DNA of 64,000 nt from a virus: the IMG/VR virus record IMGVR_UViG_3300045988_091674. The stretch is one strand, 5' to 3'. This document shows, piece after piece, positions 6,433 to 55,337 of this stretch (position 1 is its first letter; every line of letters starts with the position of its first letter). The notes below the pieces were generated by a model. The model made no database searches and was not told the DNA's origin. It saw only the letters and a program-made list of their open reading frames with translations. The translations under genes and the position numbers were made by a program.

Positions 6433-8796
6433 TTAAATCTTAGATGTTGAAATTATTTGCTCATTATCTTTCAGCATAATATTTCCCATAGAAGTTCTAT
6501 TTAACAAAGGAAAATCTGACACTTTAATAACTATAGAAGTTTTATTTCCAGAAATTAAAATCAGATCATCATCATTCACTAACTCTGCACCCGAGATAGC
6601 ACCTTTATAACAGGAGATGCCCTTTCCTCCACGGTTTTGCAATGTAAATTCTTTTAACTCAACCTTTTTTCCTAATCCGTTAGAAGAAACAATAGCCAAA
6701 TATTTAGATTGGTCGATAGGCAATGCTGCAATTACATAATCATCTTCTGCAACATTCATGCCCTTAACTCCTTGCGCGGTTCTGGAAGAAATTGGCATTT
6801 CCGCAGTTGGGAATCTAATAACCATACCATTCTTTGTAACTAACATCATTTCCTCTTGATTGATAAATGTGATTGAAGAAAGCTCGTCGTTTTCTTTTAG
6901 CTTAATAGCAACGATACCGGTTCTCTTCATTGCATCATACTCTTCTAAGGGAACCTTTTTAATAATTCCTCGTTTTGTAGCAAAGAATATAAACTTTTTA
7001 TCTGTATCTCTTGCTAAAGTAGTATAAGCAATAGGAACTTCATTATCTTCAAATTCAATAATTGCTGATAACGGAGTGCCAACAGAAGTATTAGTTCCCT
7101 CGGGAATATTATCAACAAGGACACGATACATTTTTCCTTTTGAAGAAAAGACCATCAACATATCTTGTGTATTGGTTTTTTGTGAAAATACTGTAATATC
7201 TCCATTGGTCTTTACCCCAGTAGTATTTCTCTTCTGAGACTTAAAATTCTTTATATCTATTCTTTTTACGGTATTCTTTTTTGTTACTATTACCATACAG
7301 TCTTTGGCTTCTACTACTACTTGCTCTTTCTCAGCCTTAGGAATATCGGTATTTAGAAGTTTTGTTCTTCTGGCATCACCATATTTATCTCGAAGTTCTT
7401 TAATTTTAGCAGTAAGTTTAAGATTTCTAACTTCTTGCTTTGTTAGAATTTCTACACATTGAGCAATAAAACTTCTCTTTTCTTGAAGCTCATTTATTAA
7501 TTCATCCTTATCAATTCTTGTAAGTTTTCCTAATTTCATATCCAAGATGGCACCAGCTTGAATATCATCAACAGATAAGAACTCAATCAACTTTGCTTTC
7601 GCATCTGCCCTTCCCGCAGACTGCTTAATTAAACTGATTACTTCATCAATTTTATCAACTGCGGCGATTAGCCCTTCAAGAACGTGTGCTCTTGCTTCGG
7701 CTTTCTCTTTATCAAATTTAGTAGCGCTAATTAATACAGTCTCTTGATGTTTAATGTATTCTTTAAGCAAATCCAGCATTGAGCATAATTTAGGAGTTCC
7801 ATTTACAATATAATTCATATTGTATGATAGAGTAGATTGTAAATCAGTTAGCAGGAATAAGGTATTAAGAGCTTTAGAAACAGATACACCAGATTTTATA
7901 TGGAATACTAACTTATTTTGCCCAATATTGGATTCATCATCGAAATCATCCAATAGCTCACTAAATGTGTCTATATTCTTTTCAATTTGCTCCTTTATCT
8001 TGTTTCTGTAAGTTCGATAAGGGATACTTGTAAAGGTAATTGTTTGCCCATCTATCTCATAGTCGCCTTGAATTTTAAGAGAGATTTTTGATTTTCCAGT
8101 TTCAAATGCGGACTTTATATCTTTGATATTTAGGACAGTTCCGCCAAGAGGGAAATCTGGCCCGGGCATATAAGAAAGCAATTCATCAATAGTAAGATCG
8201 CCCTTTTCGATTAGAGCAATGGCTGCGTTACATACCTCTGTTAAATTATGCGGGGCTGAATTATGCGCCATAGAAATTCCGATAGCTTGTCGTCCGTTAC
8301 AGATAGCATTAGGAAATAAAGAAGGAAGAACTACAGGTTCCATAAATTCTCCATTATAAGTTTCTTTAACTGGAACGACTTCCTTCTTGTAGTCATTCAT
8401 CATTAAATCAGCAAATAATGAAGGTTTAGCCTCTGTATAACGAGAGGATGAAAACATATCATTATTTTCTTGAGTTCCCAGTTGCCCCTGACCTGTAATC
8501 AGTGGGTATCTCATTAAAAATGATTGAGCCATTTTTCTCAAAACGCCATAGCAAGCTATATCACCATGGAAGTAAGATGTTGCAAGAGTAGAGCCAACAA
8601 TAGCATTACACTTTTTTGTTTTACTCTTATTATCCATCTTTAAATAATCTTCCATAGTCCAAAGAATTTTTCTTTGGGCGCTTAGAAGTCCATCTTCTGC
8701 GGCTGGGATAGCTCTATCAGTAAGAACCTCTTCTGCATAAGTTAAGAAGTTTTCTTTAGCTTCATCAAGAATATCAACTTCAGTAATTAAACTCAT
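6433..8796 (-). CDS. type II DNA topoisomerase subunit A (GyrA/ParC-like)
   Basis: 787 aa with no TAG. Active-site-region motifs RYTEAKPS and ISMAHNSAPHNLTEV are like GyrA. Confidence 0.8.
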   Translation of the reverse strand: MSLITEVDILDEAKENFLTYAEEVLTDRAIPAAEDGLLSAQRKILWTMEDYLKMDNKSKTKKCNAIVGSTLATSYFHGDIACYGVLRKMAQSFLMRYPLITGQGQLGTQENNDMFSSSRYTEAKPSLFADLMMNDYKKEVVPVKETYNGEFMEPVVLPSLFPNAICNGRQAIGISMAHNSAPHNLTEVCNAAIALIEKGDLTIDELLSYMPGPDFPLGGTVLNIKDIKSAFETGKSKISLKIQGDYEIDGQTITFTSIPYRTYRNKIKEQIEKNIDTFSELLDDFDDESNIGQNKLVFHIKSGVSVSKALNTLFLLTDLQSTLSYNMNYIVNGTPKLCSMLDLLKEYIKHQETVLISATKFDKEKAEARAHVLEGLIAAVDKIDEVISLIKQSAGRADAKAKLIEFLSVDDIQAGAILDMKLGKLTRIDKDELINELQEKRSFIAQCVEILTKQEVRNLKLTAKIKELRDKYGDARRTKLLNTDIPKAEKEQVVVEAKDCMVIVTKKNTVKRIDIKNFKSQKRNTTGVKTNGDITVFSQKTNTQDMLMVFSSKGKMYRVLVDNIPEGTNTSVGTPLSAIIEFEDNEVPIAYTTLARDTDKKFIFFATKRGIIKKVPLEEYDAMKRTGIVAIKLKENDELSSITFINQEEMMLVTKNGMVIRFPTAEMPISSRTAQGVKGMNVAEDDYVIAALPIDQSKYLAIVSSNGLGKKVELKEFTLQNRGGKGISCYKGAISGAELVNDDDLILISGNKTSIVIKVSDFPLLNRTSMGNIMLKDNEQIISTSKI

Positions 8797-11634: not shown

Positions 11635-13041
11635 TTAAAGTCCTAGCTTTTCCGCCAATCTTCTAATCATAGTTACTGTTTCTAATCTAGTACAGAATTT
11701 GTTTGGCATCATTCTTCCAGCGCTGTCGCCGGCCATAATTCCATTTGTCTTAGCCCATTCGAGATTATCGGAACCCCATGTCTCTTTTTCATTAGCTTTA
11801 TTGGTTAGCCAAGTATTCATAAGCTCAGCGAATTTTTCATCAGTCATATCTTCATCATCCTCCTAAATATTTGTCATTAGGTTATAAACGTCTGTTCTTG
11901 CTGTTTCCATGCTTTTTCCAAATTTTGGAAACCAATGGTTTACATCTGCATGGTTAGAACCTAATCCTAGTTTATGACTATCAGCATGACATAAAATGGT
12001 TGGAACAGTGATACCATTTAAAGTAGTCGTTCCTAATGGATTTATGTTATACATCTTACATAAATAGGCAGTAATCTAACAAGCTTCTTCATAAATCTTA
12101 TTAAAATAGTCTGCATTATTTAAACCATCTTCGCAAATTTCAAACTAAATCCATCCATTATTACAAGAGCCTTTAGTTCCAGAACCACATCCCCAAGGAC
12201 GATAATTCCATGGCATTGTCTATATTGTTGTTACTGTTCCATCTGCTAGCTTGCCAATCCAGCAATTTAGCCCAGCTTGAATAGATACATGATTCCAGTC
12301 ATTTTTACTTGTATTCTTTCCTATTTTACTTATTAAAGTATTATAGTTGGGATCATTATCGCTAGGTTGAACATATCTTTTTAAATTAGGATTATTCGCG
12401 CCTGTACTATGCCATAAAATTCCTTTAACTTGCATAGTGCGTGTCTATTTATAGCAAGTGCTATTAGTCATCATGCATTGAAGTGGTTTATTGCTATCAC
12501 TATATTTCATTTTATTACCTCCTTCAATTATATTTGAAATATTAGCAAATTTATTATAATACTATTGACCATAACTTGTTCTCTTTTGTTGCATATAAAT
12601 ACTCTAATCCGCAGGTTTTTCAAACTAAATCAATACTGCCGTAGATGCTACTTCAACAGAAACGGCAGAAATTAAAATATTAACTAAAGAAGAAAAACTT
12701 GTAACTAACTCCTAATATAAAAAATCTAATTGGGTGTTTAAATCTCCAATAGATCTTCCACGATTTTGACAGAACTAAAGTAGATTTTGTTTTCTGCTCC
12801 AGAATGTCCATTGAGCTAGGCCATAGCCGGCTCCGTCTTTTACAAAGTTTTTATACCTTCCATCATCAACTGCGGAGGTATATCCTGCGTCGGTCATTTT
12901 TAATTTTTTTTCATAGGTGTTCTATAAGTTAATAGAATTAAGACCACTTTCGGCATAAAGATTACCCATTAAACCGGCAATTCCGCAATCACTAAAACCT
13001 TTGCCTTTAAAATATTTCCAAATAATTTGAGCATTAGTCAT
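11635..13041 (-). CDS. three-domain endolysin: phage tail-type lysozyme domain, amidase-like domain and C-terminal SLH domain; about 11 in-frame TAG codons
   Basis: Codon-by-codon translation from ATG at 13041 to TAA at 11635-37 shows no TAA or TGA in frame. N-terminal GIAGLMGNLYAESG...GAGYGLAQWT (Phage_lysozyme2-like), central ILWHSTGANNP...CHADSH...NHADVNHW, and C-terminal SLH-like WAKTNGIMAGDSAGRMMPNKFCTRLETVTMIRRL. An internal GGAGG-ATG sits at 12510. Confidence 0.75.
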
Positions 13042-16905: not shown

Positions 16906-17460
16906 TCAATTTGTAAAATTTTTTATATCATTGATAATGTTGTCTAGTAAAACTGGATAGCTATTATGGGCATCAACTTCACAATGATAAATAATTCCTT
17001 TGTCCATATCAACAAAAGGATTAGTAGTATGAGTATGTCCGCAAAGATTTATAATTTTATTTTTTAGAGGTTTATTTAAATCATCAAGATTACCAGTTAA
17101 AGTGGGGAAATGAGACATATAGAAGTGATATTTCTTGTATTTAAGAGCAATAGCCCAAGCAGTTTCCATCACATTAGGAAGCTTGGCATACATTTTCTTG
17201 CGGCTATCCGTACAGTGGTTTCCAAAAGCAATGTGGAGTTTTCCATTCATAGAGGAAATAAACTCCTTATTTCTCTCAAGACCGTCTGCTCCACCGAGGC
17301 AGAGGTCCCCAAGAACATATACATCATCTTCTGGAGTGACAATAGAGTTATGCCTCTCGATAAGAGCAACATTCATCTCTTCAACAGAGTTGAATCCACG
17401 AGATTTATAGACAAATTCACGGTCATGCGAGAAGTGCCAATCCGAGGTTACGAAAATCAT
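16906..17460 (-). CDS. calcineurin-like metallophosphoesterase (possible 3'-phosphatase partner of Pnk)
   Basis: 184 aa. GDLCLGG and GNHC motifs. Overlaps the start of the kinase gene. Confidence 0.6.
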   Translation of the reverse strand: MIFVTSDWHFSHDREFVYKSRGFNSVEEMNVALIERHNSIVTPEDDVYVLGDLCLGGADGLERNKEFISSMNGKLHIAFGNHCTDSRKKMYAKLPNVMETAWAIALKYKKYHFYMSHFPTLTGNLDDLNKPLKNKIINLCGHTHTTNPFVDMDKGIIYHCEVDAHNSYPVLLDNIINDIKNFTN

Positions 17461-17990
17461 TTATCTCTCTCCTCCATTCCATGATGATTAATTCTTACTT
17501 CTTTAAATCCGTACTTATAAAGTTTAAATTCTGCGGGAGTGGGAGATCTATAGTTTCTAGCCATCTTCCTAATTGCGGACTCTGGGACTTGAGAAAATCC
17601 TTCTCTCAAGCTATTGCGAGCGATACAGGTATCAATCCCGCAATCGCAAACTTCGAAGACAAGTCTTGTTTTTCCGTCCGGCCGCAGTCTACCCAATAGC
17701 TTTGCTCTTGATCCTTGGGAAATATGAGTTGCGTCAACAAAGACGTAATCAATTCCGATTTCGAGACATTCGTTAATCTGACGGACAAATTCTTCGAATA
17801 CATCATTCTCTTTTCCGAAGTAACTTCCATCACCAACGAAAGATTTTCTTATCTCGTCACGGGAGATAATAGTAGTATGAAAACCATCCATTTCAAGCAA
17901 CTCAGCTTCTTTATGCGCCCAAGTAGATTTTCCACTACCGGGGATACCGACCATAACTTTTACTTCAATAGTCATACTGCTTTCCTCCAT
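17457..17990 (-). CDS. pnk: polynucleotide 5'-kinase (T4 Pnk kinase-domain-like)
   Basis: 177 aa. GIPGSGKSTWA is nearly identical to T4 Pnk GCPGSGKSTWA. Confidence 0.7.
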   Translation of the reverse strand: MEESSMTIEVKVMVGIPGSGKSTWAHKEAELLEMDGFHTTIISRDEIRKSFVGDGSYFGKENDVFEEFVRQINECLEIGIDYVFVDATHISQGSRAKLLGRLRPDGKTRLVFEVCDCGIDTCIARNSLREGFSQVPESAIRKMARNYRSPTPAEFKLYKYGFKEVRINHHGMEERDK

Positions 17991-18051
17991 TCATTTAACT
18001 TTCTATAAATATTATAATATATTTTTTATAAAATATCAAAAGATTTTTATT

Positions 18052-18939
18052 TTAAATCTCAACTGGTTGAATTAGTTCTTCAATATAAGTCCTACCTTCA
18101 TCTTTGAATAGAGGAATATTAAGGTCAATAAACCAATAGTGTTTAAAATGAATTGAGCCATCTTCTCTTTCCGTTTCTTCGCAGTCTTTTATACAACAAG
18201 AACCTCTCTTCAAATAGGTCGGTAGACTATTCCAATCTATCCCCTTTTTGGAAATAAGCATCTCTAAAATTTCACTACTGCACTTACCCTGAAGTTCACT
18301 ATGAGAAAAATTTGCTTGACCAACCATTTGAATAGAATTGCGAATGGCATCTAACTGTCGCCAGTAAATGAGATTTGTTACCTCTTCTTTTGGGATATTA
18401 AAAACACGTGCATCAAACATAGCACCTTTTGCGCTTGCCATCCGTAAAGTTTTCATATATTCTTGATGTTTCTGTCGGATTTCTACACTTTGCGGAGTTA
18501 GAGAACACTTCCAATCAACTTCGTATGCTTCAATCGCTCGATGAAAAGCTTTATTAAAAGCCATTGTCGCCATAGATGCTGCAACAGAGCACATCTTTTG
18601 AACTTCGTAGTCAAACCACGCTTCACTATTTAATTTCTTGTAATCAACAAGAATTAGAGTTATTTCATCACTTTGTGTATATCCAAGAACACATCCTTGA
18701 ATATTTCTGCACAAATACTCTGTAGTTTCTTGCATAGCTTCAACTAACACTTCGTCAAATGGTTTTTTAAATCCTTTAGTGAAGGTATGAAATGCTTTTC
18801 CATCAATTCTAATTGCTACTGGAGTTCTGCGCATGAGGTGAGTTTTAGGTACCTGTTCATAAAACTCCTTCATACGAGTACCAAGTTGGTCATTCATACT
18901 GTTTATCCTCCATATCAACCATAAAAATATGCTCGTCAA
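18052..18939 (-). CDS. Thg1-like protein (tRNA-His guanylyltransferase family / tRNA 5'-end repair)
   Basis: 295 aa. IRIDGKAFHTF matches the Thg1 RxDGRxFHxF motif. Confidence 0.6.
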   Translation of the reverse strand: MTSIFLWLIWRINSMNDQLGTRMKEFYEQVPKTHLMRRTPVAIRIDGKAFHTFTKGFKKPFDEVLVEAMQETTEYLCRNIQGCVLGYTQSDEITLILVDYKKLNSEAWFDYEVQKMCSVAASMATMAFNKAFHRAIEAYEVDWKCSLTPQSVEIRQKHQEYMKTLRMASAKGAMFDARVFNIPKEEVTNLIYWRQLDAIRNSIQMVGQANFSHSELQGKCSSEILEMLISKKGIDWNSLPTYLKRGSCCIKDCEETEREDGSIHFKHYWFIDLNIPLFKDEGRTYIEELIQPVEI

Positions 18940-19624
18940 AGGTATCGAGATTTAAGAGAACGGTTTGTCCAGTAAAGAAACTGCCACAATCAATATTTAC
19001 CTTATGGTCATTGCAGTACCAAAAAGCACCCTCAACATAAGAGTCTTCTCTCGCTCCAAAGAAATTTTTTAGACTTCCTCTATAGCCTCTAATCATACCG
19101 GGGATAGGAGTATGTCCATGAACACAGATAGTATTATTTTCATAGTAAGTATCCCAAATATGTTCTCTATCCCAGATTAAATCTCTTGTATTTGGATTAG
19201 AACCTGCTGTAAGCCCTGCATGACAAAGAGCTATTTTAACATCGTCTTTATTGCAGTATTCCATATAAGTAGGTAACTTACTTAAATAATTACACCAATC
19301 AGGGTTCGCACCATCACTTATCCAACCTTCAAAGGTGTCTTTCCCTCCATTAAAACAAAGCAAAGCATAATCTCTGTCGAAACATTCATACTTCGCATAT
19401 TCTCTCATTGCATTGACAAGCATATCTTCGTGATTACCCTTGATGTAGATAAATTGCGGATCTGCGGCAACTGCTTTAATGGTTTCCCAAGGATCAGGTC
19501 CCCGATCGCCGCAATCGCCCAGGCAATAAACTTTATCTTCTGGTTTTAAAAATTTCTTTACCTCTTGATAAAGACATAACATACCATGAAGATCACTAAT
19601 AGCGTATACGCTCACTTTAATCAC
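18890..19624 (-). CDS. metallophosphatase (PPP-family or diadenosine-tetraphosphatase-like)
   Basis: 244 aa. DLHGML, GDCGDRGPD and GNHE motifs. Confidence 0.65.
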   Translation of the reverse strand: MIKVSVYAISDLHGMLCLYQEVKKFLKPEDKVYCLGDCGDRGPDPWETIKAVAADPQFIYIKGNHEDMLVNAMREYAKYECFDRDYALLCFNGGKDTFEGWISDGANPDWCNYLSKLPTYMEYCNKDDVKIALCHAGLTAGSNPNTRDLIWDREHIWDTYYENNTICVHGHTPIPGMIRGYRGSLKNFFGAREDSYVEGAFWYCNDHKVNIDCGSFFTGQTVLLNLDTFDEHIFMVDMEDKQYE

Positions 19625-19687: not shown

Positions 19688-20410
19688 TTAAAAGAAGGGG
19701 CAGATTGGCATTTCCTCTGTTTTATGTAGGTTTCTCTTGTGTCTCTGCTCAATATTTTTATATACTTCATACGGAGGAGTAATACGATATAGCAAAAAGT
19801 TATCAAGAGTTTTATAAGAAAAACCTAGATTCTCTTCATCTGAGAGTCCAGTTAATCCATCTTCTGGAACTTTTTCTATAAATTTCTCCGGTAGACCAAG
19901 TTCTAAACCAATCTCTTTAACTTCTGTTACTGTGTAATTGTGCAGAATTGAAAAATCTCCCGCGGAATCACCAAATTTGGTTGAATAACCAACATAATTT
20001 TCACTTCTATTACAAGTGTTTGCAACTCTACCATGTCGAGCAGCCGCGATGGCATAAAGAATATTCATTCTTTCTCTTGCTGGAACGTTACTTACAACTT
20101 GAGGAAGATTACGAATATCAGAGGGTAGGGAGAAAAAAGTTGCTTTGCAAGCCTCTCCAATGTTGATATTATAATGTTCTTTAATGCCTAGATACTCAAT
20201 AACTTCATTTGAAATATCAATGTCTGATTGATACCCTTGTGGCATTTGAACTGCAATTACATTTTCTGGCCCAATAGCTTTACAAAGCAGTGCGGCAGCG
20301 ACAGTAGAATCTTTTCCTCCAGAAATACCAATAACAGCTTTGCAGTCCGGGCCGTTGTCGATAAAATATTTTTTAATCCAGTTAATGATTCTTTGAACTC
20401 TTATTGTCAT
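19688..20410 (-). CDS. nadE: NH3-dependent NAD+ synthetase
   Basis: 240 aa with PP-loop SGGKDS. Confidence 0.75.
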   Translation of the reverse strand: MTIRVQRIINWIKKYFIDNGPDCKAVIGISGGKDSTVAAALLCKAIGPENVIAVQMPQGYQSDIDISNEVIEYLGIKEHYNINIGEACKATFFSLPSDIRNLPQVVSNVPARERMNILYAIAAARHGRVANTCNRSENYVGYSTKFGDSAGDFSILHNYTVTEVKEIGLELGLPEKFIEKVPEDGLTGLSDEENLGFSYKTLDNFLLYRITPPYEVYKNIEQRHKRNLHKTEEMPICPFF

Positions 20411-20415
20411 AAGAT

Positions 20416-22005
20416 TTACTCTCCCATCAGTCGATTCTTAATTGTATAAAAATCTTCCTCGTTTTCGCGTACAAAAACACCATCTTTTACTTTGAATTTC
20501 ATTACATTATCCTTATATTCGATGGCTTCTTTAAGAGTAAGATTTTCAACAAGCCTATATTGGCCCTCTGAGTCTTTAACAACCGCTACGCATCCACGAG
20601 GAGATTTTTTCCCAGGATCGGTTTTTGGCATCTTGTAGATTTGGATTTCATCTTCTCCAAGAATACAATCGGTAGCCTTAATTGCATAGCCTCTAGTGTC
20701 ACGAGTTACATATTGATAAGTATATGCGCCAATTCCAAAACAGATATTTGATACTGAAATAGAATTATTGACACACCAATTACATATTTTTTCAGTGATC
20801 TCGGGAGTGATCGCATCGCCATAAATAACACGAATACAAGAGGGAAGCTCAAAATAACCCTTTCTATTAAGGTTGCCGCCAAAAGTATCAAAGAGACTGA
20901 CAAGAGTTCCTTTACCCTCCGGGGAGTCAGGATCAACAGCAAAACTTGTGTCCCCGCAAATGATTTTTACTGGATCTCCGCTATCGGGGCGGATGGAAAG
21001 GCATCCATCCCGCTGCTCGATAATGTCTCTCAATGCAGGAACAATTTTAGATACTACACCCCAATAATCATATGTATCTGCTACATAAGTCATTGTCCCA
21101 GTAGGCTGAATATTGATAAGAAGATGGCGCAGGAAGAGCATCTCAGCAATAAGATTAACTTCCCAATTTTCAGAGAGGCAAGTATTGAGTAGAGCTTGCT
21201 CCTCGGCTTCTAGCTCACCATTGAACATCTGCGCTCTTTTCCATGCTACACCCTGTTCAACAACAGAGTGCTCCAGAGATGGAGTTCCCATTAGAGGAGG
21301 ATTATTCTCTAAATCTGCTCCATAATATTTCTCCAAAAGAAGATTAGAACCAATGGTCGCAGTCCTATCAAAAGACAAAGCGTGCGCGGCGCCAGAGATA
21401 TAGCCCGCTTCAAGTGAAGTGTGACCGCGGAGAGAGAAGTCACCGCACATATGAGGGAGAGCAGACATATCGTCACAGGTCATCTTAACATAAGGCTCGA
21501 TTAGCTTACGTCGATAGAAGGCTGTCGTGGCAGAAGTAGAAGGAAGCCAGTTATTTGCACTCCACTGATCTTCAATAAACTGCGGAAGCCATGCAAATTC
21601 AGGATCAGTAGAAAAGATAACATGATCTGGAATACCGATAGGAAGAAGTGTACCTTCGGGAACTCCCATAATTGAAATGGGAAGATAGCCAAGCTCATAA
21701 AGTTTCCTAAACTTGCTGAAATCTGCATAGCCAGGATGGAAAGTATCCTTGATTACCCTGTTCCACTCGCTTTCAAGCAGATCAATGGGCTGATTAAAAA
21801 ATTCTGCCTGCCAGTAATTAAGCAGTCGCTGGATGGTATATTGATGGCCAAACACCATAGTTTTGGCGCAGTCTTTATGATATTTATTGCTGCGAGCAGT
21901 CCAAGTAGAATACACCATCTTTGCGTCGGCAGGCTGCATTTTAACCGCATGACCAATCTTATAATAGTCTGCCGCAAACATAGGTGCTACATCAAAGAAA
22001 CTCAT
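20416..22005 (-). CDS. nicotinamide phosphoribosyltransferase-like (NAMPT/NadV)
   Basis: 529 aa. Size and context within an NAD-salvage block. Assignment by overall similarity pattern, not a single motif. Confidence 0.55.
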   Translation of the reverse strand: MSFFDVAPMFAADYYKIGHAVKMQPADAKMVYSTWTARSNKYHKDCAKTMVFGHQYTIQRLLNYWQAEFFNQPIDLLESEWNRVIKDTFHPGYADFSKFRKLYELGYLPISIMGVPEGTLLPIGIPDHVIFSTDPEFAWLPQFIEDQWSANNWLPSTSATTAFYRRKLIEPYVKMTCDDMSALPHMCGDFSLRGHTSLEAGYISGAAHALSFDRTATIGSNLLLEKYYGADLENNPPLMGTPSLEHSVVEQGVAWKRAQMFNGELEAEEQALLNTCLSENWEVNLIAEMLFLRHLLINIQPTGTMTYVADTYDYWGVVSKIVPALRDIIEQRDGCLSIRPDSGDPVKIICGDTSFAVDPDSPEGKGTLVSLFDTFGGNLNRKGYFELPSCIRVIYGDAITPEITEKICNWCVNNSISVSNICFGIGAYTYQYVTRDTRGYAIKATDCILGEDEIQIYKMPKTDPGKKSPRGCVAVVKDSEGQYRLVENLTLKEAIEYKDNVMKFKVKDGVFVRENEEDFYTIKNRLMGE

Positions 22006-22088
22006 AAAATCTTCCTTTCCTTATTTCTTTATTATATTATAACATATATTTTTATAAAAATAAAAAGCTCTCATAAGAGAGCTTTTTA

Positions 22089-22457
22089 TCAATTTTGAAG
22101 CAAGCTGAATAATGCTTCAATTCCTACGTATTCTGGCGCAATAATGCAAGTAATAATTGGAACACAAACTGTAATAATGACTGAAAGTATGGGCACGAAT
22201 GTAAGAATGTGCAGGTGCCATTTTTTAAAATCGACTTCAATCATTAGATATAGTATAAACCATATAATACTAGAAATAATAGCACCTATAAAAACCCCAA
22301 CAAAAATGTTAAATCCTAAATCTTTAACGGTTACGTACCAGCCATATTTAGCCAACCACATTGGAGCATTTTCCATAATAGTTTGAGTGGTTACTCCAAA
22401 AAAGTTAGCAAGAGACTGTAAAATAGAAGCCAACGTCTGCTCTAAAGTCAAACTCAT
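22089..22457 (-). CDS. small multi-pass membrane protein
   Basis: 122 aa with three hydrophobic segments. Confidence 0.4.
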   Translation of the reverse strand: MSLTLEQTLASILQSLANFFGVTTQTIMENAPMWLAKYGWYVTVKDLGFNIFVGVFIGAIISSIIWFILYLMIEVDFKKWHLHILTFVPILSVIITVCVPIITCIIAPEYVGIEALFSLLQN

Positions 22458-33208: not shown

Positions 33209-33587
33209 AATTACCCCTTCATCAATTTATCATAAAAGTCTGCCCAATCATCTCTATCAGTGTCTTCCATAATAGCAAGATGCCAAAATTCTTCACTGAA
33301 AGAGTCATCGAACTTTTTATCAAACTGGTCAAAAATCATCTTCTCCATAATATCAAGAGGAGAAGCGAACTCAGACTCAAAATATTCTACTCCTGTTACG
33401 TCACTGGTTTTAGTAAGCATAAGGCAATAGTCTTGCACTTCGCCTGCATATTCAATAAACTTACTTTTTGTCATTACAACAAATCCTTTCTTTATTTCTA
33501 TTTATATTATATAATATTTTTAATTAAATGTCTATAAATAGAAATAACGGGGAAATGGCATTTTTCTTGCCATTTCCCCGAATAGGG

Positions 33588-35111
33588 TTAGTGGATTACC
33601 GCATATCTCTGACTATTGAGCTTATCAAGGATAAGATCAATACCAGTCTTGCCGGTCATAATCTGCTCGAAAAGCACAGGAGAATAACCACTGACAAAGG
33701 TAACTCTGCCATTATCTCTCATAGGAATGTTATCCTGACGAGCCTGGACATTCCAGAAAACGAGCTTAGGTAATTCATAACCATGGGCCTTCCAAATGTC
33801 TGCAATCTTCTCCATTTCAGACTTGGTATCTCTATTGTAACGACTCCAATAACCGTAATTATCGTCGAATGAGGCGCAGGAATCGAACTCCATATCAGAA
33901 ATTACGATTACATTCTTAGGCATATCCTCCTGCTTTACTCCATTCTCAATAGCGAGCTTGAGAATTAAGTCGAATACACTCTTAATGTTAGTATTCTCAC
34001 AGAGATTCTTGCTATAAATGCGATGTACCTTGTCAACGAAGTCGATGCCCTCAACAGGTACCAGTCTAGCCTGACGAGAGAAGGTGATGTAGTGACCATA
34101 CCAAGGAGAACTTTCATTACACTTTTCAGCGCAATACATTCCCAGAGAGATAGCCACATCAATAGGATTAATCTCATTGAAGCCACCTGTCATAGACGCA
34201 GAAGTATCTACAACAGCAACCCCATTGAAAACGGCATCATGGAAATAATCTGCCAGATTATCCCAGTACTTGCCAATCATCAGACGATCGGTATCATCAG
34301 CATGATATGCTCTACTCAACTTAACCGCCTCATGGACAACCTCACAGGGGTTCAAGGCCTTGGCATTTACCTTTGTGTCAGTGCTCTTAGCAAACTCCGC
34401 ATAAGTCTGCTTATCAGCCTTCTCCCTCATAATGTCATGACGGGCGAAAGCATTACGATAGATCAATCCCGCCTTAGAGGGAATCTTATCGAACTCGATT
34501 TCGTCCCAACGATTCTCGGACATAAGTCTCTCAAGAACCTTAATGCGCTTGCGGAGAACGGACAAAGTCTTGCGATACTGGCGAGGAGTCATACGGAAGT
34601 GGGTGCGAGTAATAGTAGCCAACTTACGAGATTCTGCGGAGCTGGTATTTTCAGACTTCAACCACTTAGCCAGAAGAGAAGGGGTCTTACACTCAACATC
34701 AAGAGCCAACTGATGGTACATAATGTCGAAAGCCTCATCTTCCAGGGGAGTTCCAACGAAGACGTAGAGGTCATCCCATCTGCCGAACTCGGGAACATAC
34801 TTCAGATTGCGGCGCATTGCATCGGTGTGGTGATTTGCCAACCACTTAGTTGCTACTCGGAAAAATCTGCGCTCGCCCTGTCCACCACGCACATCGCGCA
34901 GATAAAACAAGCACTTGAGCGCATAAGTTTCATCTTCCTTAAAAGCCTTATCGAACAGGAAGATTACGTCATCCTCGGAGCGCTTGCGGTAAGCAGCTCC
35001 CATGGCGAACAAATCCATGATTCCACTCATCGTAGACTTATAGGTAATGCCGCCGTTTTCAGTAGTGGTGATGTTGTCCATCTGCTTCATAGCGTTAAGA
35101 ATTGTATTCAT
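33588..35111 (-). CDS. vWA-domain protein (DUF2828 / TROVE-like family)
   Basis: 507 aa. MIDAS motif VVDTSASMTGG. N-terminal TENGGITYKSTMSG...ALKCLFYLRDVRGGQGERRFFR resembles the DUF2828 N-terminus. Confidence 0.55.
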   Translation of the reverse strand: MNTILNAMKQMDNITTTENGGITYKSTMSGIMDLFAMGAAYRKRSEDDVIFLFDKAFKEDETYALKCLFYLRDVRGGQGERRFFRVATKWLANHHTDAMRRNLKYVPEFGRWDDLYVFVGTPLEDEAFDIMYHQLALDVECKTPSLLAKWLKSENTSSAESRKLATITRTHFRMTPRQYRKTLSVLRKRIKVLERLMSENRWDEIEFDKIPSKAGLIYRNAFARHDIMREKADKQTYAEFAKSTDTKVNAKALNPCEVVHEAVKLSRAYHADDTDRLMIGKYWDNLADYFHDAVFNGVAVVDTSASMTGGFNEINPIDVAISLGMYCAEKCNESSPWYGHYITFSRQARLVPVEGIDFVDKVHRIYSKNLCENTNIKSVFDLILKLAIENGVKQEDMPKNVIVISDMEFDSCASFDDNYGYWSRYNRDTKSEMEKIADIWKAHGYELPKLVFWNVQARQDNIPMRDNGRVTFVSGYSPVLFEQIMTGKTGIDLILDKLNSQRYAVIH

Positions 35112-36132: not shown

Positions 36133-36207
36133 TGGCAGCGGAGGTGGGATTCGAACCCACTCCCGAGGTTTTAGAGACCCCTGCGCTAACCATTACGCTA
36201 CTCCGCA
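36133..36207 (-). tRNA. amber suppressor tRNA (anticodon CUA), tRNA-Trp-like scaffold
   Basis: Anticodon stem ggggt/acctc, loop CUCUAAA giving anticodon CUA, T-arm gtgggttcgaatcccac, CCA encoded. Loop and T-arm are nearly identical to the window's tRNA-Trp (47063..47138). Confidence 0.75.
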
Positions 36208-41352: not shown

Positions 41353-41443
41353 TACATACTTCCTTTCCTATTGTTTGGTTTGGTGGGCCAGGAGGGAATC
41401 GCACCCACTCGAGCTCGAAAGCACCGGTTTTTGGAGTTAAATC

Positions 41444-41848
41444 TTAGATTCGAACTAAGTATTTACTGGTATCCAATTTACAATTTGGGGCACTGGTTGT
41501 TCTCAAAGTTATTGATTTTACATTTCCAGCTTGAATCAAATCGTTCATTGGAATTACAAACATATTCATATCTTGATTAGCGCAAAACAACAAGTCTAAA
41601 GGATGGTTAAGTATCGAATCATAAACATTTCCTTTAGTTCCACCTGCGGATTTTAGATTAATTTCTCCAGTTTTCGATGATGTAAATTTGCACTAAACTG
41701 TTTGGAAAACTCCATCTTTTTCAATAACTAAATCATACCATTGAGTATCATTCAGTGGGACTGATACAGTGTATCCATTAGAACCAAAGTATCCTATTGC
41801 TAAAGATAGACCAGCATTTCCTTTCTACTGATTGTTTGTAATGACCAT
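41444..41848 (-). CDS. hypothetical protein with in-frame TAG
   Basis: RBS AGGAGG then ATG at 41848. Read with TAG as sense, ends in TAA at 41444-46. Not in the ORF track. Confidence 0.4.
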
Positions 41849-42015
41849 TAATATCCTCCTAAGTAGGAATTTAACACAGACCGGGGTGTCTACTTTATCA
41901 CTTTACTGACCCATATATAAAAGCGCCGAACATCCTATTAGAACGCCTTCCCCATGCGGGACTTCTATTGTTTATTTGCTGGCAGAATTTGAACCATTAA
42001 CCATGGCGCTATTAG

Positions 42016-42101: not shown

Positions 42102-42187
42102 ATAATGCACATTTTTATGCTGAGTTGCGCTTCTCACCTTTCTCTTCTTCTTCCCCGACGGATGAAAGTATCTTCGGCATATTCGGT

Positions 42188-42307
42188 GGGGAGTGCAGGA
42201 CTCGAACCTGCGACATCGTGCACCATAAGCAAGTAGTAAAGATTGCTGTTACGGTCTTTGACAAGACCAAACTATTAACGCGCTCTACCTACTGAGCTAA
42301 CTCCCCA
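42188..42307 (-). tRNA. 120-nt tRNA-like gene with about 45 extra nt between the D-arm and T-arm
   Basis: Perfect acceptor ggggagt/actcccc, canonical D-arm tagctcagtaggtagagc, T-arm gcaggttcgagtcctgc. No canonical anticodon arm in the intervening 70 nt. Confidence 0.4.
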
Positions 42308-43188
42308 TATTAAAAACGATTTTGGTTAAGGTTAATCGTGAACCTTGTCAGTGTGCTACTACGCCAAAGGCGAGTCCTGCAGGTCTACTCGCCACTCTTT
42401 GAATGGTGGACGCTTTCAATCCTACATCCTGACAATAGAAGTCTTATTTACGATTTCTATACGTATTGCTTCTATTACTGGCACCGCTTCTTCGTGTTGA
42501 ACGAAGACCTCTTGGTTCAGAGCCAAGCGTGCAGACCGCTACACTAAAGCGGTATAAAGAAAATAGAATAACTTAAATATAACTATAATGCGGGCCTTCG
42601 CCCTACCAACTGTTTAATCTTCATCTATATTCAACCATTGAGGAGACAAGTCTGAGCTTCGAGGAGCGACCTCTAACTTCTTGCCCCAGAACTTTTGTTC
42701 CATTTCTCAAAAGGGATTGATTACCCTTACCTTTCACCCGTCATTCAGAAATTTGATTTTAGAACAAGCAATATCTTATTATCTAATCATCAAAGTCTTT
42801 GCACATTTGGGCTACTCAGATCATGACCTTATCTTATACCCAGATTTCTCTGGTTCAAGTGCAAACTCTCTTGTTGGCATTTCCAAGGATTGCCAAAGTT
42901 GCCACACTTTAACCTAACTTGGATTATTCCCCACAGGGGCGTCTATTGCGAGAGCGATAAGACAGTGTTTTTAGATGCGATTATGTCAGCACAACCCTCC
43001 TAGGAGCCGGTCATTCGACCACGAGAACTCTAATGTCACCATTAAAGCCCATTACGGATGGTTGGGGTATCCTCCATTATCCGATTCTCCCAGCCTAAGC
43101 TCGGATTGGGTTTCTCAGCCACATGACGTTGTGTCTTCACTGAGTTGCATTATAGCCATATCTAAGTTATTCTATTTTCAAGGTACAG

Positions 43189-45202: not shown

Positions 45203-45337
45203 AAACTTCCTTTCCTCTTGTTATGTAAATTATTCTATCTTGAAAAATTCTTCTTCAAATTTAAGTTTTTGCTATTTTATTTCTTCAGAATATCTTCCAT
45301 TTCTAGGAGTTAAGCGTATATAGTCTTTAATTATTAA

Positions 45338-45631
45338 CTAAGCTCTAGCTTTTTTCTTTGGTTCATTAAGATAACTGACAATCTCTTCTAATAAAGAAAT
45401 AGCCTTTCTCCGCTCTATCTTCCAAATATAAGCCTGTTTCCATTTTGGATTACGCTCATTTTTCTTGGAAATAACTCCTCCAAAATGCTCTTTAAGATAT
45501 TCTACAATTTGATATGTTGTACTAGACACTTCTAATACTGGATACCTAAACTATTTATCCTTGGTGAGAGTAATACTTCCTTCACCATCAATAATGCCAG
45601 CCAAATATCCTCTTTCTAATTCTGTCATATT
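45338..45631 (-). CDS. LAGLIDADG homing endonuclease (single-motif type), one in-frame TAG
   Basis: RBS GGAGG then ATG at 45631. LAGIIDGEGS motif. TAG at 45551-53 joins the sequence to ORF 45338..45529. Confidence 0.55.
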
Positions 45632-46147
45632 AATTCCTCCACATATGTTATATATGGAGCCGAATTGGGTTTCGATTATCCACCACTTTCTTTTTAAGAG
45701 AAGAAAGAAACTCTTGGTGGAGATGACGGAGAGTCGCACTCCGTGTCCGAAATAACTACATAACTAGAATATTATTACACGATAGTTTCACTTTAAACTT
45801 TTATAAATGGAGTTTTAGCTGAAACTACTAATAACCATAGAGCAGTACCAGTTGTACTCTGCCTCCACCACTCTATTTAATTAAAGGCAAATAGAGAAAT
45901 CCAAGGGATTAAAACAGCGAGCTATGCTCAAGCTGCGATATTACTAGAAAAATAATCGTTGTCGTTTAATTTTGTTGCCCCTTAAGGCGGTATGCCTACC
46001 CGTGTATTCTAGTTTCTCATTACCCCGTCGAACCTACGCATCCCCATATAGTGACCCTCTATCTATTGCAGAAAGAATCGAACTCTAGACTCTATAGCCA
46101 TAGAGGGTCTTTTGTAATGAAATTAAAATGTCTGCCGATTTCTCGGC

Positions 46148-50256: not shown

Positions 50257-50423
50257 ATACTATGGTTAAGATGATTGGTCGTGTCAATCAAGGAGAACTA
50301 CGCTCTAATTTATCGGCTACTACAGTCCAATGTGCCAGGCATCAACCCAAAGGGGACACCGCATTGCTGATTCACTTGCGCGCTATCGCTGCCTATATAC
50401 GACTTGCGATACTTTGTTCTTTC

Positions 50424-50460
50424 TCAACCTTGTATAAACATTATACAATATTTTTTATTG
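50424..50460 (-). promoter_or_regulatory. sigma70-type promoter (TTGAAA, 17 nt spacer, TGTATAAT) upstream of the tRNA-Ala segment
   Basis: Reverse complement ATTTGAAAAACAATAAAAAATATTGTATAATG. Confidence 0.5.
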
Positions 50461-50501
50461 TTTTTCAAATTGGCGATGACGACGGGGTTTGAACCCGTGA
50501 C

Positions 50502-50979
50502 CTTCGGCGTGCCTTAGTGATTATAGTGTGGATAGAATATCTTCAGCTTTAAAATCTTTAGCCTGCTTTTGAGTAGATAATCTTGTGGCAACAGTCCAAA
50601 ACTTAGTCTCTACTGTTCCAAAAACAGGGAACATATAAAACCTTCCATTAAACTCTGTCATAAAATAGTCTACATCTTTAGCAGAATAAGTCATTTTTTT
50701 AACTTTTCCATTTTCTCGCACTTCATATTTAGTACGAACAAGAAATCCAGTTTCCTCTACCGGCATAGCGTGTTTTACTTGAATTTTATAGAATTTGCCG
50801 TTCTTCTCTATCACTAAATCATACTTTTGATGATTTCCAATCGGAATAAGAACATTCCAACCATTCTCAATTAAATACGCCTAACATTTAAGCTCTGTAA
50901 TATCTCCAATCTGGGATGGATTTAATTTCTCCAATGCTATCAATCCTCCCTCTAAAGATATTCTCTATTAATCTCCAAG
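50502..50979 (-). mobile_element. putative self-splicing (group I-like) intron in the tRNA-Asp anticodon loop, carrying a 97-aa ORF
   Basis: Bounded by the tRNA halves. The U|...G| boundary nucleotides fit group I rules. ORF 50521..50814 lies inside. Group I core P-elements were not verified. Confidence 0.45.
50521..50814 (-). CDS. intron-encoded ORF (97 aa, unknown function)
   Basis: ORF located inside the intervening sequence of the split tRNA-Asp. No recognisable homing-endonuclease motif. Confidence 0.35.
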   Translation of the reverse strand: MIEKNGKFYKIQVKHAMPVEETGFLVRTKYEVRENGKVKKMTYSAKDVDYFMTEFNGRFYMFPVFGTVETKFWTVATRLSTQKQAKDFKAEDILSTL

Positions 50980-51119
50980 ACAGGCCGACGTTCTAGCCTA
51001 CTGAACTACGCCACCGTATAAGGCGAGGAAGGGTCGTACGCACCCCGTGTGCTTTGCGCCTCGTCGTTCACATATATCACACTTCTGACTTATTGGGCAT
51101 GGGAAATCAGTAGAAACCA

Positions 51120-51650: not shown

Positions 51651-52172
51651 TTATGAAATCAAATCCTCAAGAGTTTTGAAATACTTCTCTTCATCAAATA
51701 AGATTGGCGTAAAATCATCTAAAGAAATTAGACCATTTTCAATTCTTCTGTGACAATTAGCACATAGCATTATACACTTTTTTGCTTCATCTGCATAAGC
51801 CTATTTACTTCTTGTAGTAGAAGAATTTGCGATACCAAAACTTTTTGTAGATGGGTCAACGTGATGAAAGTCGTATAACTGAGGTGCATCCCGCAATCCG
51901 CAGTAAGAGCATTTATGAGAAAAACCTTCCACCAATGCTAGCTTAATTCGTTTTCTAAAATTAACTACATTTTTTCCACTATTTTTCTTTAAATGCTACT
52001 TACATCCGCAGCTCTAAATAGCTCCAGAAGTTAAATGACCTGTCTAAACTTCTTTCTCGTTCCCACATTCACATCTACATAGCCAATATGTTTTACCACT
52101 TCTACTTGGAGCTTTTGAAACTGCTGTTAATGCTCCAAATTTTTGTCCAGTTAAATCCAACGCTGTCGGCAT
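51651..52172 (-). CDS. HNH homing endonuclease with N-terminal zinc-ribbon module, in-frame TAGs
   Basis: RBS AAAGGAGAG then ATG at 52172. MPTALDLTGQKFGAL...YWLCRCECGNE...SCGCK...DFHHVDP...CANCHRRIE. Ends in TAA at 51651-53. Not in the ORF track. Confidence 0.6.
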
Positions 52173-52650: not shown

Positions 52651-52724
52651 TGGCTTCCAAAATGGGATTCGAACCCATAACTTTTTATTTCAATTAAAAT
52701 GTCCAACCATTAGACTATTCGGAA
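52651..52724 (-). tRNA. tRNA with anticodon TGA (Ser UCA) on a type-I body
   Basis: Perfect stem tttta/taaaa, loop AUUGAAA, 4-nt variable loop, G73. Confidence 0.45.
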
Positions 52725-52786: not shown

Positions 52787-52881
52787 TGGTCCCGCGCCAG
52801 GGATTCGAACCCCAAACCTCACGCTAATCTGGCGCTAATACCGGGTATAAGCCGGCTGCTCTACCGTTGAGCTACCGCGGG
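52787..52881 (-). tRNA. 95-nt tRNA-like gene, anticodon TAT?, with a 23-nt extra region
   Basis: Canonical D-arm tagctcaacggtagagc, anticodon arm gccgg-CUUAUAC-ccggt. The long insert before the T-arm is not an obvious hairpin. Confidence 0.35.
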
Positions 52882-54005: not shown

Positions 54006-54953
54006 TTAATTACCCATACCCAAAAATCTTTCAATAATTTCTTGAATTTTTTCGTAATCTGTATAGGCGATTCTTAACAAAGGTATATTATGCTCTTTAG
54101 CATACTCAGTTTTTAAAGAATCTCTTTTTAAGTTATCCTCACTATACCACTAACTACTTGTATCAAAATGTTGCCTACCGTCATATTCAATTAACCCTAT
54201 AAGTCTTTCATTTTTGAAAATAGCAAAATCATATCTTAAATAAGATTTATCTTTTAAATCTTTAAATTTATATTCTCTTATAAAAGGTATATCATACTAA
54301 GTTAAAATTTCTGCTATCTTAGTCTCTCCGCGAGAATTTCCAATACATCCGCAACTCTGCGTATCATGATTCATCAGAGCACTACGGGATACTGTTTTTA
54401 TATTACCACAGTCACATTTACAAATCCAATATCTGTGATCATCTTCTGATCGTTTTAGAGCAGTTAATCTACCAAAACGCTATCCAGTAAGATCCCCTTG
54501 AGCTAAGCGCGTTTCAACTCCTATAGGCTAAACTATTTCTTTCATAATCTAGCCTGATATTTCTTTTTGTAGACATCCGCAAGATTTTTTAGCTCCGTTA
54601 TTTAATTCTGCGGTTTTTGCATAGGTTATATTTCCACAATCACACTAGCATTTCCAAAATACGGCAGTCCCAGTATGCGTTTGTTTCCACGAGTCTGTAT
54701 ATTCCTAGTCATAACCTAATACAGTTAATCTTCCAAATTTTTGTCCAGTTAAATCTTTCCTGTATAAAGTCCTAGAACATTTTGGACAAGAAGTTTTTGC
54801 TCCACTTGTCAACTAATTTGTTATAGTTATAACTTCATTTCCGCAGTCGCATTTACAAAGCCACTATGCTTTATTAGCTTTAGTGTTCTCTACTCTTTTA
54901 ATAACCAACAATTTTCCAAAACGCTATCCCGTTAAATCTTTTAATGGTGCCAT
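54006..54953 (-). CDS. zinc-ribbon-repeat endonuclease-like protein (paralog 3), multiple in-frame TAGs
   Basis: ATG at 54953. MAPLKDLTG-TAG-RFGKL, four WxCxCDCGN...SCGC repeats, C-terminal YDFAIF...IEYDGRQHF...RIAY. Ends in TAA at 54006-08. Length 948 nt, divisible by 3. Confidence 0.55.
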
Positions 54954-55337
54954 AAAATTCTCTCCTTTATCATATATCGTTTCAATAAATATAAAAATTA
55001 TTAAAACAGATATAATCAAAAGTGACCAGTTAAATAATATTTAATTTTCTTTTTAGCTCTTCGATCTTGGCCTTATCTTCAGGAGCTAACTCAGTAGGAG
55101 TAAACTCAGTTGCTGGTGCCCCTCCTGAGCTTGATGTAGAGGGCGCATTATCTCCACCACCCGCAATCGGTGTCTTTGGCATAGTAATAGAAACCGCAAA
55201 TTGAATTTTCTCTCCATTTACGCCATCTTGTGCCCACACATAGATTTTTTTATCTTGAATTCCAACAAAGTCTTCTCCAAAAGCCTTGCAAATTGTATCC
55301 ATTACATTTTGACGAGCTGCATCTCCACGTTTAGCCA

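Follow-up and report, generated by a model that had tools for sequence, protein, structure and literature searches.

An endonuclease-encoding intron in the anticodon loop of a phage tRNA-Asp gene: a mobile element that lacks a ribozyme and may require protein enzymes for its removal

How could a tRNA gene whose anticodon loop is broken by several hundred nucleotides still yield a tRNA? The question is raised by a tRNA-Asp gene in the IMG/VR virus record IMGVR_UViG_3300045988_091674, of which one stretch of 64,000 nt (the window, to which all coordinates refer unless another locus is named) was analyzed. A preliminary description of this DNA had recognized two tRNA-Asp halves and left the choice between a compact self-splicing intron with a novel intron-encoded protein and a tRNA gene disrupted by an insertion. 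The gene is occupied by a mobile element that encodes an intact homing endonuclease, contains no ribozyme, and carries a conserved helix which juxtaposes the splice sites and masks the anticodon; its removal by a protein endonuclease and an RNA ligase, a chemistry that we infer, is favored here with moderate confidence. The split gene is composed of the following parts.

50979..51015, minus strand: tRNA-Asp(GUC) exon 1, tRNA positions 1-36, 3' end ...UCGGC CUGUC, identical with the 5' portion of the tRNA-Asp that stands uninterrupted in the related loci L010 and L012
50511..50978, minus strand: intervening sequence of 468 nt between tRNA positions 36 and 37, 5'-UUGGAG...CUAAGGC-3', delimited by intron-less alleles and relatives
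50471..50510, minus strand: tRNA-Asp exon 2, from position 37 to the encoded CCA, delimited by intron-less alleles, the joined exons being called by ARAGORN

Both halves were borne out at the place first reported, on the minus strand. Exon 1 (GGUGGCGUAGUUCAGUAGGCUAGAACGUCGGCCUGUC) and exon 2 (ACGCCGAAGGUCACGGGUUCAAACCCCGUCGUCAUCGCCA) join into a 77-nt cloverleaf that ARAGORN calls as tRNA-Asp(gtc), with an acceptor stem GGUGGCG/CGUCAUC containing two G.U pairs, an anticodon stem UCGGC/GCCGA, and a joined loop CUGUCAC; the insert measures 468 nt rather than the 478 nt first given, and the tRNA ends at 50471, not 50461. A chance origin of the halves is excluded because two IMG/VR contigs, 3300045988_091188 (L010, tRNA at 6901-6977) and _084596 (L012), carry identical exons contiguously and in the same gene order as the window, Leu(gag)-Asp-Ala(tgc); their 300-nt flanks are 96.7-99.7% identical to those of the window. 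In contigs _080502 and _081499 the 468-nt insert is present, with 12 substitutions that all fall within it. Phages that are nearly identical otherwise thus differ cleanly in having or lacking the insert. As regards the DNA, the suggestion that an insertion had disrupted the tRNA gene is correct.

The window alone leaves the boundary ambiguous by one nucleotide, as a C stands at both junctions: the insert could follow U35 and end in G, or follow C36 and end in C. Relatives with a unique placement decide the matter. The exon pattern of the Asn clade, sought in uninterrupted form in IMG/VR, reads CUGUUAA in 111 of 111 matches, for which only CUGUU/UAC...AAGC/AA is possible, and L005 and L017, taken as tRNA-Asp, allow only the boundary CUGUC/...UU/AC. 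The Asp-type insertion site, as read from these aligned genes, is therefore 36/37 throughout the relatives; the insert has U as its first base and C or U as its last. The proposal that exon 1 ends in U and the insert in G, which had been held to fit group I splice-site rules, corresponds to just one of the two placements in the window and is therefore an artifact of the one-nucleotide ambiguity.

The coding capacity of the insert had been described as a 97-aa ORF of unknown function; that segment (50814-50521) is the tail, past an in-frame TAG, of a longer ORF whose function can be assigned. The relevant features are as follows.

50521..50934, minus strand: homing-endonuclease ORF of 137 codons plus stop, TTG start, I-Ssp6803I-like PD-(D/E)XK (Pfam PF11645, PDB 2OST)
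50881..50883, minus strand: in-frame TAG predicted to be read as Gln (homolog alignment and the window's tRNA with anticodon CUA)
50944..50950, minus strand: Shine-Dalgarno-like GGGAGGA, 9 nt upstream of the TTG start, from sequence reading
36133..36207, minus strand: tRNA with anticodon CUA (amber suppressor), called by ARAGORN and needed to read the TAG of the intron ORF

The 137-aa read-through product matches the Pfam family PDDEXK_5 (PF11645) with E=3.5e-23 and 82.6 bits (cut-off 26.1) and the I-Ssp6803I structure 2OST with E=7.7e-10, in an alignment that begins upstream of the TAG and spans it; YDLV...IQVK of the intron ORF (D39, Q52, K54) lies opposite YDLV...VQVK of 2OST. The match to 2OST settles the predicted fold of the intron protein as that of I-Ssp6803I, and while the expectation of an intron-encoded protein held, its novelty did not survive these two matches. 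Residues E14, D39, Q52, and K54 are invariant in seven homologs, down to 35% identity, because of which the putative nuclease is evidently under selection. Relatives have AAGGAG or GGAGG at the same place as GGGAGGA in the window.

The TAG at 50881-50883 aligns with CAG in L003, L004, L005, and L007, and L006 has TAG where others have CAA. When TAG is read as sense in the window, ORFs of at least 100 aa rise from a total of 15,558 to 22,386 residues. Because homologs have Gln codons at this place, the ORF total rises, and a tRNA(CUA) is encoded, the phage is predicted to read TAG as Gln through this tRNA, a genetic code of type 15. In-frame TAG use in the window is patchy and gene-specific, with 10-11 TAGs in some genes and none in many; the ORFs at 3515-4426, 11635-13041, and 54006-55019 may serve as illustrations.

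Relatives were collected by an IMG/VR scan with the intron-protein alignment, giving 39 loci, in nearly all of which the ARAGORN intron option returned a split tRNA of ~540 nt around the ORF. The family comprises about 35 split tRNAs from six tRNA species in IMG/VR, with one member in a cultured phage, Enterococcus phage EFP01 (Schiekvirus), whose split gene is a tRNA-Asn at 105242-105777 (KY549443); in the EFP01 record the intron ORF is annotated as hypothetical and the split tRNA carries no annotation. When spliced in silico at 36/37, 31 of 31 genes gave valid tRNAs by ARAGORN (Asn 19, Asp 8, Ile(GAU) 3, Lys(UUU) 1), and a tRNA-Thr(UGU) and a putative tRNA(UUA) were added by eye as further hosts. 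The first intron base is U (C in one Lys gene); the last is C in nearly all of the ~35 relatives examined, U in L017, and A in L029 and L051. Length is 462-486 nt in 31 relatives; the intron of one Thr(UGU) gene (L046 1426-2175) is 665 nt long and has a longer ORF with a C-terminal extension. The putative anticodon-UUA tRNA, an ochre-suppressor candidate, contains the same intron type at L051 ~1450-1960, and L048, in which exon 1 is degenerate, is an example of decay. Free-standing PDDEXK_5 copies were also found beside intact tRNA-Tyr or tRNA-Asn genes (L175-L179, L184, L188, L193-L195, and L200) and, in Bacillus phage BCP78 (L221, 1498-1893), beside an intact tRNA gene; the endonuclease gene thus exists both inside and next to its target. 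A search for close relatives among GenBank phages returned tRNA-sized matches only. In the EFP01 locus examined (99311-111616; L052), the terminase large subunit is annotated in three pieces with other ORFs between them, presumably due to introns, and tRNA genes are unannotated.

A compact self-splicing group I intron, as had been proposed, found no support. At Rfam gathering scores in the whole window there was no group I or II match (RF00028 included), nor did the insert contain any other ribozyme; a relaxed threshold of E<=10 on 50400-51100 gave no group I or II match, and at E<=1 in 20 related loci neither a group I/II match nor a ribozyme inside any intron was obtained. The non-coding intron RNA in the window consists of a 44-nt leader and a 10-nt tail (54 nt), and in 31 relatives the ORF fills the intron save a short leader and a tail of 8-14 nt. 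For comparison, the shortest tRNA group I intron is 184 nt and those with endonuclease genes exceed 500 nt (PMC13011429), and group I introns of Bastillevirinae retain ~350 nt of non-coding sequence (PMC11878797). Along the whole ORF, conserved amino acids use 1.6-2.6 different codons in every 15-codon bin, with no long nucleotide-frozen stretch. The terminal intron base is not G once the boundary is fixed by the intron-less alleles, exon 1 of Asp genes ends in C36 and not U, and the leader contains no internal guide sequence near the intron 5' end. As for group II features, Rfam gave no match for a domain V/VI ribozyme, and the ORF encodes a nuclease, not a reverse transcriptase. One manually sought P1 helix, in which GCAGGC near 50567 would pair with exon GCCUGU including a U.G pair, was rejected: it lies at the 3' end of the ORF, has a chance expectation of ~0.1, and is lost in L007/L019.

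What the intron does conserve is a long helix which continues the anticodon stem and contains both splice sites.

50952..50982, minus strand: 5' strand of the predicted rod, exon U33-C36 plus leader +1 to +27 (minimum free energy, MFE, fold of the precursor; covariation)
50510..50546, minus strand: 3' strand of the predicted rod, the last 8 sense codons of the ORF, its stop, the 10-nt tail, and exon A37 (precursor MFE fold; covariation)
50511..50513, minus strand: last three intron bases GGC, predicted to pair with anticodon G34 U35 C36 (50981-50979) and tracking the anticodon in relatives

The MFE of the whole 545-nt precursor is -149.9 kcal/mol (z=-4.5), with the acceptor, T, and anticodon stems formed. 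The predicted rod of 29 bp extends the anticodon stem after a C32.C38 mismatch and contains the stop codon of the ORF; its first pairs are U33-A37, G34-C(-1), U35.G(-2), C36-G(-3), U+1-A(-4), U+2-A(-5), G+3.U(-6), and G+4-C(-7). To assess covariation, 27 distinct split tRNAs were aligned without gaps across their junctions, the register being set by hand from the splice sites. In the rod, 91.4% of cells are paired compared with 64.0% in shuffles, 14 of 15 pairs show changes on both sides, and the covariation value is 0.745 against 0.213, a level reached by none of 500 shuffles; control registers slid by 1-3 columns are ~40% paired. At pair 36/-3, 20 sequences have U-A and 7 have C-G, while five pair types are seen at +2/-5. 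From one tRNA species to the next, the terminal intron trinucleotide changes along with the anticodon: GUC with GGC, GUU with AGC or AAC, GAU with AUC, UUU with AAA, UGU with UCA, and UUA with UAA. Because the rod alignment has 58 G.U pairs compared to 3 A.C mismatches, selection appears to act on the tRNA-sense RNA; a DNA palindrome or terminal inverted repeat in place of an RNA helix is ruled out on the same count. RNAalifold recovered the same helix independently in the Asn/Lys clade, together with a distal helix bearing compensatory changes, and in the Asp clade AGAAUAUCUU/AAGAUAUUCU is replaced by the compensated UAAAAUUUUCUU/AAGAAAGUUUUA in L007/L019; L019 and L020 likewise show compensated substitutions in the distal helix.

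In this predicted helix the 5' splice site (36/+1) and the 3' splice site (-1/37, opposite 33/34) lie on opposite strands, separated by 3 bp (34/-1, 35/-2, and 36/-3), and cuts at both would leave 3-nt 3' overhangs. The axis of a pseudo-dyad passes through pair 35/-2, in most cases a wobble or a mismatch. On the modeled fold, a dimeric enzyme that cuts across the minor groove would be expected to show this geometry. Save for positions 32 and 35, the exon-proximal RNA helix has the sequence of one half-site plus the center of the intron-less DNA. Two familiar cleavage motifs were considered and rejected: no register yields the two 3-nt bulges 4 bp apart of a bulge-helix-bulge, and RNase III has a 2-nt stagger versus the 3-bp stagger of the Asp type. 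The Asn/Lys clade has in addition a conserved internal loop, YUGAC opposite CUGAUGU; a hammerhead reading of CUGAUG lacks a third stem, and the registers do not fit a K-turn or box C/D motif.

The window holds a second interrupted tRNA gene, for tRNA-Tyr, with an insert of the same general kind.

41381..41912, minus strand: tRNA-Tyr(GUA), type II, split at 35/36 (exon 1 41912-41876, exon 2 41431-41381)
41432..41875, minus strand: tRNA-Tyr insert of 444 nt, 5'-G...CUCCA-3', delimited by uninterrupted alleles
41444..41848, minus strand: paralogous PDDEXK_5 ORF with two in-frame TAGs (Pfam E=8.8e-15)

The site is unique at 35/36 because the identical tRNA-Tyr is uninterrupted in the sister contigs L158, L159, and L173 (CUGUAAAACCGG). 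The two introns are distributed independently: _081499 and _080502 have the Asp intron only, _084596 the Tyr intron only, _091188 neither, and the window both. Relatives of the Tyr paralog include introns at 35/36, introns at 34/35, and free-standing genes just upstream of an intact tRNA-Tyr. In Tyr-type introns, +1 is paired to -5 and N-CCA closes the RNA, resembling an acceptor stem and unlike the Asp-type junction.

Both genes belong to a tRNA array on the minus strand (~35.2-52.9 kb) that includes 30 tRNAs called by ARAGORN, a tRNA with anticodon CUA, a tmRNA, and a ROOL RNA. Asp and Tyr are the only amino acids without any of these 30 uninterrupted tRNAs, and they are exactly those of the two interrupted genes; this gap argues that both split genes are meant to work.

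Several other members of the array deserve mention. A 120-nt tRNA-like gene at 42187-42306 (minus strand) scores 50.9 bits with the Rfam tRNA model and receives no ARAGORN call; its anticodon stem keeps the outer 3 bp only, the remainder being replaced by 58 nt, and its inner hairpin loop is UUGUCAAA in the window and L174 and UUGUUAAA in L158, L159, and L173 (GUC vs GUU). Two further minus-strand tRNAs are atypical for their assigned amino acids, namely one of 95 nt at 52787-52881, which combines the anticodon UAU with a long extra arm, and a 74-nt tRNA with anticodon UGA (Ser) without a long variable arm at 52651-52724. The ROOL RNA (42573-43168, 350 bits) is full-length, and it and the tmRNA (45715-46045), both on the minus strand, lie inside the array. 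A LAGLIDADG endonuclease ORF (45230-45739, minus strand) starts 25 nt ahead of the tmRNA gene's 3' end. Three minus-strand ORFs (51651-52172, 24339-25211, and 54006-55019) have in common 'DLTGQKFGxLT ... C-x-C-x-CGN' modules that are repeated; an HNH_2 domain is present in one ORF and a DUF2726 nuclease-like domain in one, two are TAG-rich, and the three are probably free-standing homing endonucleases. In related intron-bearing arrays (L021 1976-2043 and 538-654, L036 720-785 and 1086-1143, L040 2430-3016, and L019 2777-3233), sub-threshold HDV-like hits directly follow tRNAs, one of them abutting the 3' end of a split tRNA-Asn, and a twister-P1-like hit, Y-RNA-like hits, ROOL (EFP01), and GOLLD-like RNA also occur.

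Adjoining the tRNA array is an RNA-repair island (17457-19624 and 25297-35111, minus strand), some of whose genes are candidates for the later steps of splicing.

25297..26571, minus strand: RNA ligase, candidate for joining the exon halves (PF09414, 33.5 bits, cut-off 27)
17457..17990, minus strand: P-loop kinase (AAA_33/KTI12-like), candidate for 5'-end healing (Pfam)
18890..19624, minus strand: metallophosphoesterase, candidate for 3'-end healing (Pfam)
27970..28839, minus strand: further Metallophos ORF (Pfam)
28836..29633, minus strand: RlaP (Pfam)
30773..33208, minus strand: major-vault-protein homolog (Pfam)
33588..35111, minus strand: DUF2828/DUF7788 protein (Pfam)

By tblastn, the RNA ligase matches genes annotated as RNA ligase in 381 phage records. 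A Thg1-like enzyme accompanies the kinase and phosphoesterase at 17.4-19.6 kb; two metallophosphoesterases are counted near the RlaP and ligase set, with a third by the kinase. The name RlaP refers to a linkage with repair ligases (PMC12776372), and the vault-protein homolog and the DUF2828/DUF7788 protein are other RNA-repair-associated genes. Between the two parts of the island, at 19688-24255 (minus strand), are genes for NAD salvage or synthesis (NAD synthase, NAPRTase, a phosphoribosyltransferase, and an isochorismatase/nicotinamidase) and a YqeY-like protein.

The following account is proposed from these data. At the DNA level, the I-Ssp6803I-like endonuclease would recognize the pseudo-palindromic anticodon stem-loop DNA of an intron-less tRNA gene and cut it, and the intron would be copied into the cut allele by repair, giving rise to the presence/absence polymorphism; homing of this kind is well supported by the comparison of alleles. 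At the RNA level, the 44-nt leader and the last ~35 intron nucleotides of the precursor would form the 29-bp rod continuing the anticodon stem, a dimeric protein endonuclease would cut both rod strands at the splice sites so that the intron leaves, and the tRNA halves, held by the cloverleaf, would be joined by an RNA ligase, with prior healing of their ends where necessary, a step that the phage ligase, kinase, and phosphoesterases could supply. Translation of the ORF would unwind the rod, and translation and splicing may thus be mutually exclusive. The intron's own enzyme is a candidate splicing endonuclease because the RNA helix reproduces one half-site and the center of its presumed DNA target. 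That a mobile intron without a ribozyme is removed by a protein endonuclease and an RNA ligase is considered somewhat probable; the narrower proposal, in which the PD-(D/E)XK endonuclease doubles as the splicing endonuclease on a helix mimicking its DNA target, with an equal 3-bp stagger about position 35, and the phage heal-and-seal enzymes rejoin the exons, is rather unlikely.

A number of points weigh against enzymatic splicing. The element is known here from DNA sequence and a predicted RNA fold alone. No splicing endonuclease was identified, with no EndA-type (PF01974) match among the 30 window ORFs scanned, and the window's RNA ligase has no tblastn homolog in the intron-bearing EFP01, so that it is not a universal partner. 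The Tyr-type sites (35/36 and 34/35) and NCCA junction mean that one geometry does not cover all cases. We know of no PD-(D/E)XK homing endonuclease that cuts RNA duplexes, and the features of I-Ssp6803I that invite the comparison are its reported 3-nt 3' overhangs and anticodon-centered target, for which a review gives only a 23-bp pseudo-palindrome. Frequent re-homing into intact alleles could alone keep most of the observed exons intact, the decayed copy in L048 being relevant here.

The main alternative is that the insertion is selfish and never spliced, leaving the tRNA gene dead and its tRNA to be supplied by the host or by other genes; the rod would then serve the endonuclease gene only, through polycistron processing, mRNA stability, or translation control. 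Such an element would need neither the ribozyme nor the splicing enzyme that the searches failed to reveal, the free-standing copies beside intact tRNA-Tyr and tRNA-Asn genes indicate that the gene needs no intron context, and the degenerate exon of L048 and the existence of intron-less sister phages point in the same direction. However, the complementarity between the terminal intron trinucleotide and the anticodon in six tRNA species and the compensatory changes in a helix spanning both junctions are difficult to reconcile with it, as exon bases 33-37 would have no place in a hairpin that served mRNA stability alone. Moreover, all 31 exon pairs still give valid tRNAs, and the split genes are the sole Asp and Tyr genes in an otherwise complete array. 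This alternative is regarded as possible, with a probability that is appreciable and well short of even.

Uncatalogued RNA catalysis, either by a new small self-cleaving or ligating motif in the rod or by a trans-acting RNA of the island such as ROOL or GOLLD, is improbable. In its favor, the Asn/Lys clade has the conserved YUGAC/CUGAUGU loop, ROOL or GOLLD lies <=1.5 kb from the split tRNA in EFP01, L019, and L031 and ROOL is present in the window array, and HDV-like and twister-like hits occur in these arrays; yet both splice sites lie within a regular helix, unlike known self-cleaving sites, the CUGAUG loop is absent from the Asp clade, no Rfam ribozyme falls within any intron, and the proximity of ROOL and GOLLD is expected as they are known to accompany phage tRNA clusters. 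More improbable still is excision by host RNase P and RNase Z or similar enzymes acting on an intron end that mimics an acceptor stem, an idea pertaining mainly to the Tyr type. The excised Tyr-type RNA, 5'-G+1...C(-5)-N-CCA-3' with +1 paired to -5, is kept at two insertion sites, and both enzymes leave 3'-OH and 5'-P ends joinable by an ATP-dependent ligase. However, the Asp/Asn/Ile/Lys type, including the window's tRNA-Asp intron, has no CCA end, the base before the Asp-type cut (position 36) is paired, which disfavors RNase P, and the Tyr-type sample is small and made up of related sequences. Weakest of all, a group I self-splicing intron with a ribozyme core overlapping the ORF is scarcely credible in view of the Rfam searches without a match at the locus and in 20 relatives, the 54 non-coding nucleotides, the synonymous changes, the loss of the GCAGGC match, and a terminal C or U in place of the universal omega-G, even though the related I-Ssp6803I resides in a group I intron of tRNA-fMet in cyanobacteria, Patescibacteria have group I introns at 35/36 of their tRNA-Asn/Asp genes and RF00028 misses some tRNA introns (PMC13011429), and the window alone permits a U...G boundary and a GCAGGC-GCCUGU pairing.

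The removal of the intron by protein enzymes, the reading preferred here, would have consequences beyond this locus. The family is widespread and shows how such elements may be built, with a homing endonuclease gene set within a rod that pairs with the anticodon, and the presence of a member in EFP01, a phage in culture, makes ribozyme-free tRNA intron removal directly testable. If enzymatic splicing is true, archaea and eukaryotes would cease to be the only organisms with protein-dependent tRNA splicing, the RNA-repair kits of phages would take on a housekeeping function, and a plausible route from homing endonuclease to splicing endonuclease would be at hand; should the intron's endonuclease also prove to be the splicing enzyme, the pathway would have no precedent in the bacterial world. 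Standard tRNA finders miss the split genes, as with Asp and Tyr here, and phage tRNA repertoires are under-counted as a result. Ribozyme-free tRNA introns with an endonuclease gene were not found described in the literature searched, the coverage of which is incomplete such that an earlier description is possible; there is a substantial chance that an intron of this kind constitutes a new splicing route for the bacterial world. A 2014 review places all phage introns known then in protein-coding genes, despite the many phage tRNA genes (PMC3984707), and the one later report found in the literature searched terms the inserts in Lak megaphage tRNAs 'enigmatic' (PMC6784885).

Among the closest known systems is the Synechocystis tRNA-fMet intron (I-Ssp6803I, 2OST), which is likewise mobile, interrupts the anticodon loop, encodes a PDDEXK_5 ORF, and has pseudo-palindromic anticodon stem-loop DNA as its target; it differs as a group I intron that splices itself, of >500 nt at site 33/34, whereas the intron in the window has 468 nt, lies at 36/37, lacks a ribozyme and a terminal G, and forms a rod pairing the anticodon. 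The group I introns at 35/36 of tRNA-Asn/Asp/Tyr in Patescibacteria also occupy GUN-anticodon tRNAs and are missed by standard tRNA finders, but they match group I models or splice in vitro, have a 5' U and terminal G, and are mostly without endonuclease genes (PMC13011429). Among phages, the 'enigmatic' tRNA introns of Lak megaphages resemble the present ones in occupying phage tRNAs, tRNA-Tyr included, in being unclassifiable by Rfam, and in their polymorphism between genomes; unlike here, their description mentions no endonuclease and proposes no structure or mechanism (PMC6784885). T4 SegB and other free-standing homing endonucleases of phage tRNA clusters also target phage tRNA gene regions, but SegB is a GIY-YIG enzyme never found inside a tRNA (PMC2330249). 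The kinase, phosphoesterase, and RNA ligase encoded in the window recall the resealing of anticodon loops in T4 tRNA repair (Pnkp and Rnl1) and by yeast and plant Trl1; in T4 the break is made by a host defense nuclease and does not arise from an intron, and the splicing role of the window's genes is a proposed one.

The archaeal protein-spliced introns, among them rRNA and tRNA introns with LAGLIDADG homing endonuclease genes, are similar in outline, as no ribozyme is involved, paired ends present both sites, the endonuclease ORF lies in a distal loop, the anticodon is paired, and removal would need a protein endonuclease and a ligase; splicing of the archaeal and eukaryal type requires an RNA ligase, and a gene for one is present in the window. 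They differ in that the sites in the window are separated by 3 bp of continuous helix, whereas the bulge-helix-bulge has them in 3-nt bulges with 4 bp between, that the Asp-type (36/37) and Tyr-type (35/36 or 34/35) positions depart from the canonical archaeal and eukaryal 37/38, and that the host is a bacteriophage. By analogy, the element would work most like an archaeal protein-spliced intron with a homing gene, yet it departs from such introns in the defining motif and position; it matches group I introns in none of the features tested, and shares its endonuclease family and target logic with the intron of I-Ssp6803I.

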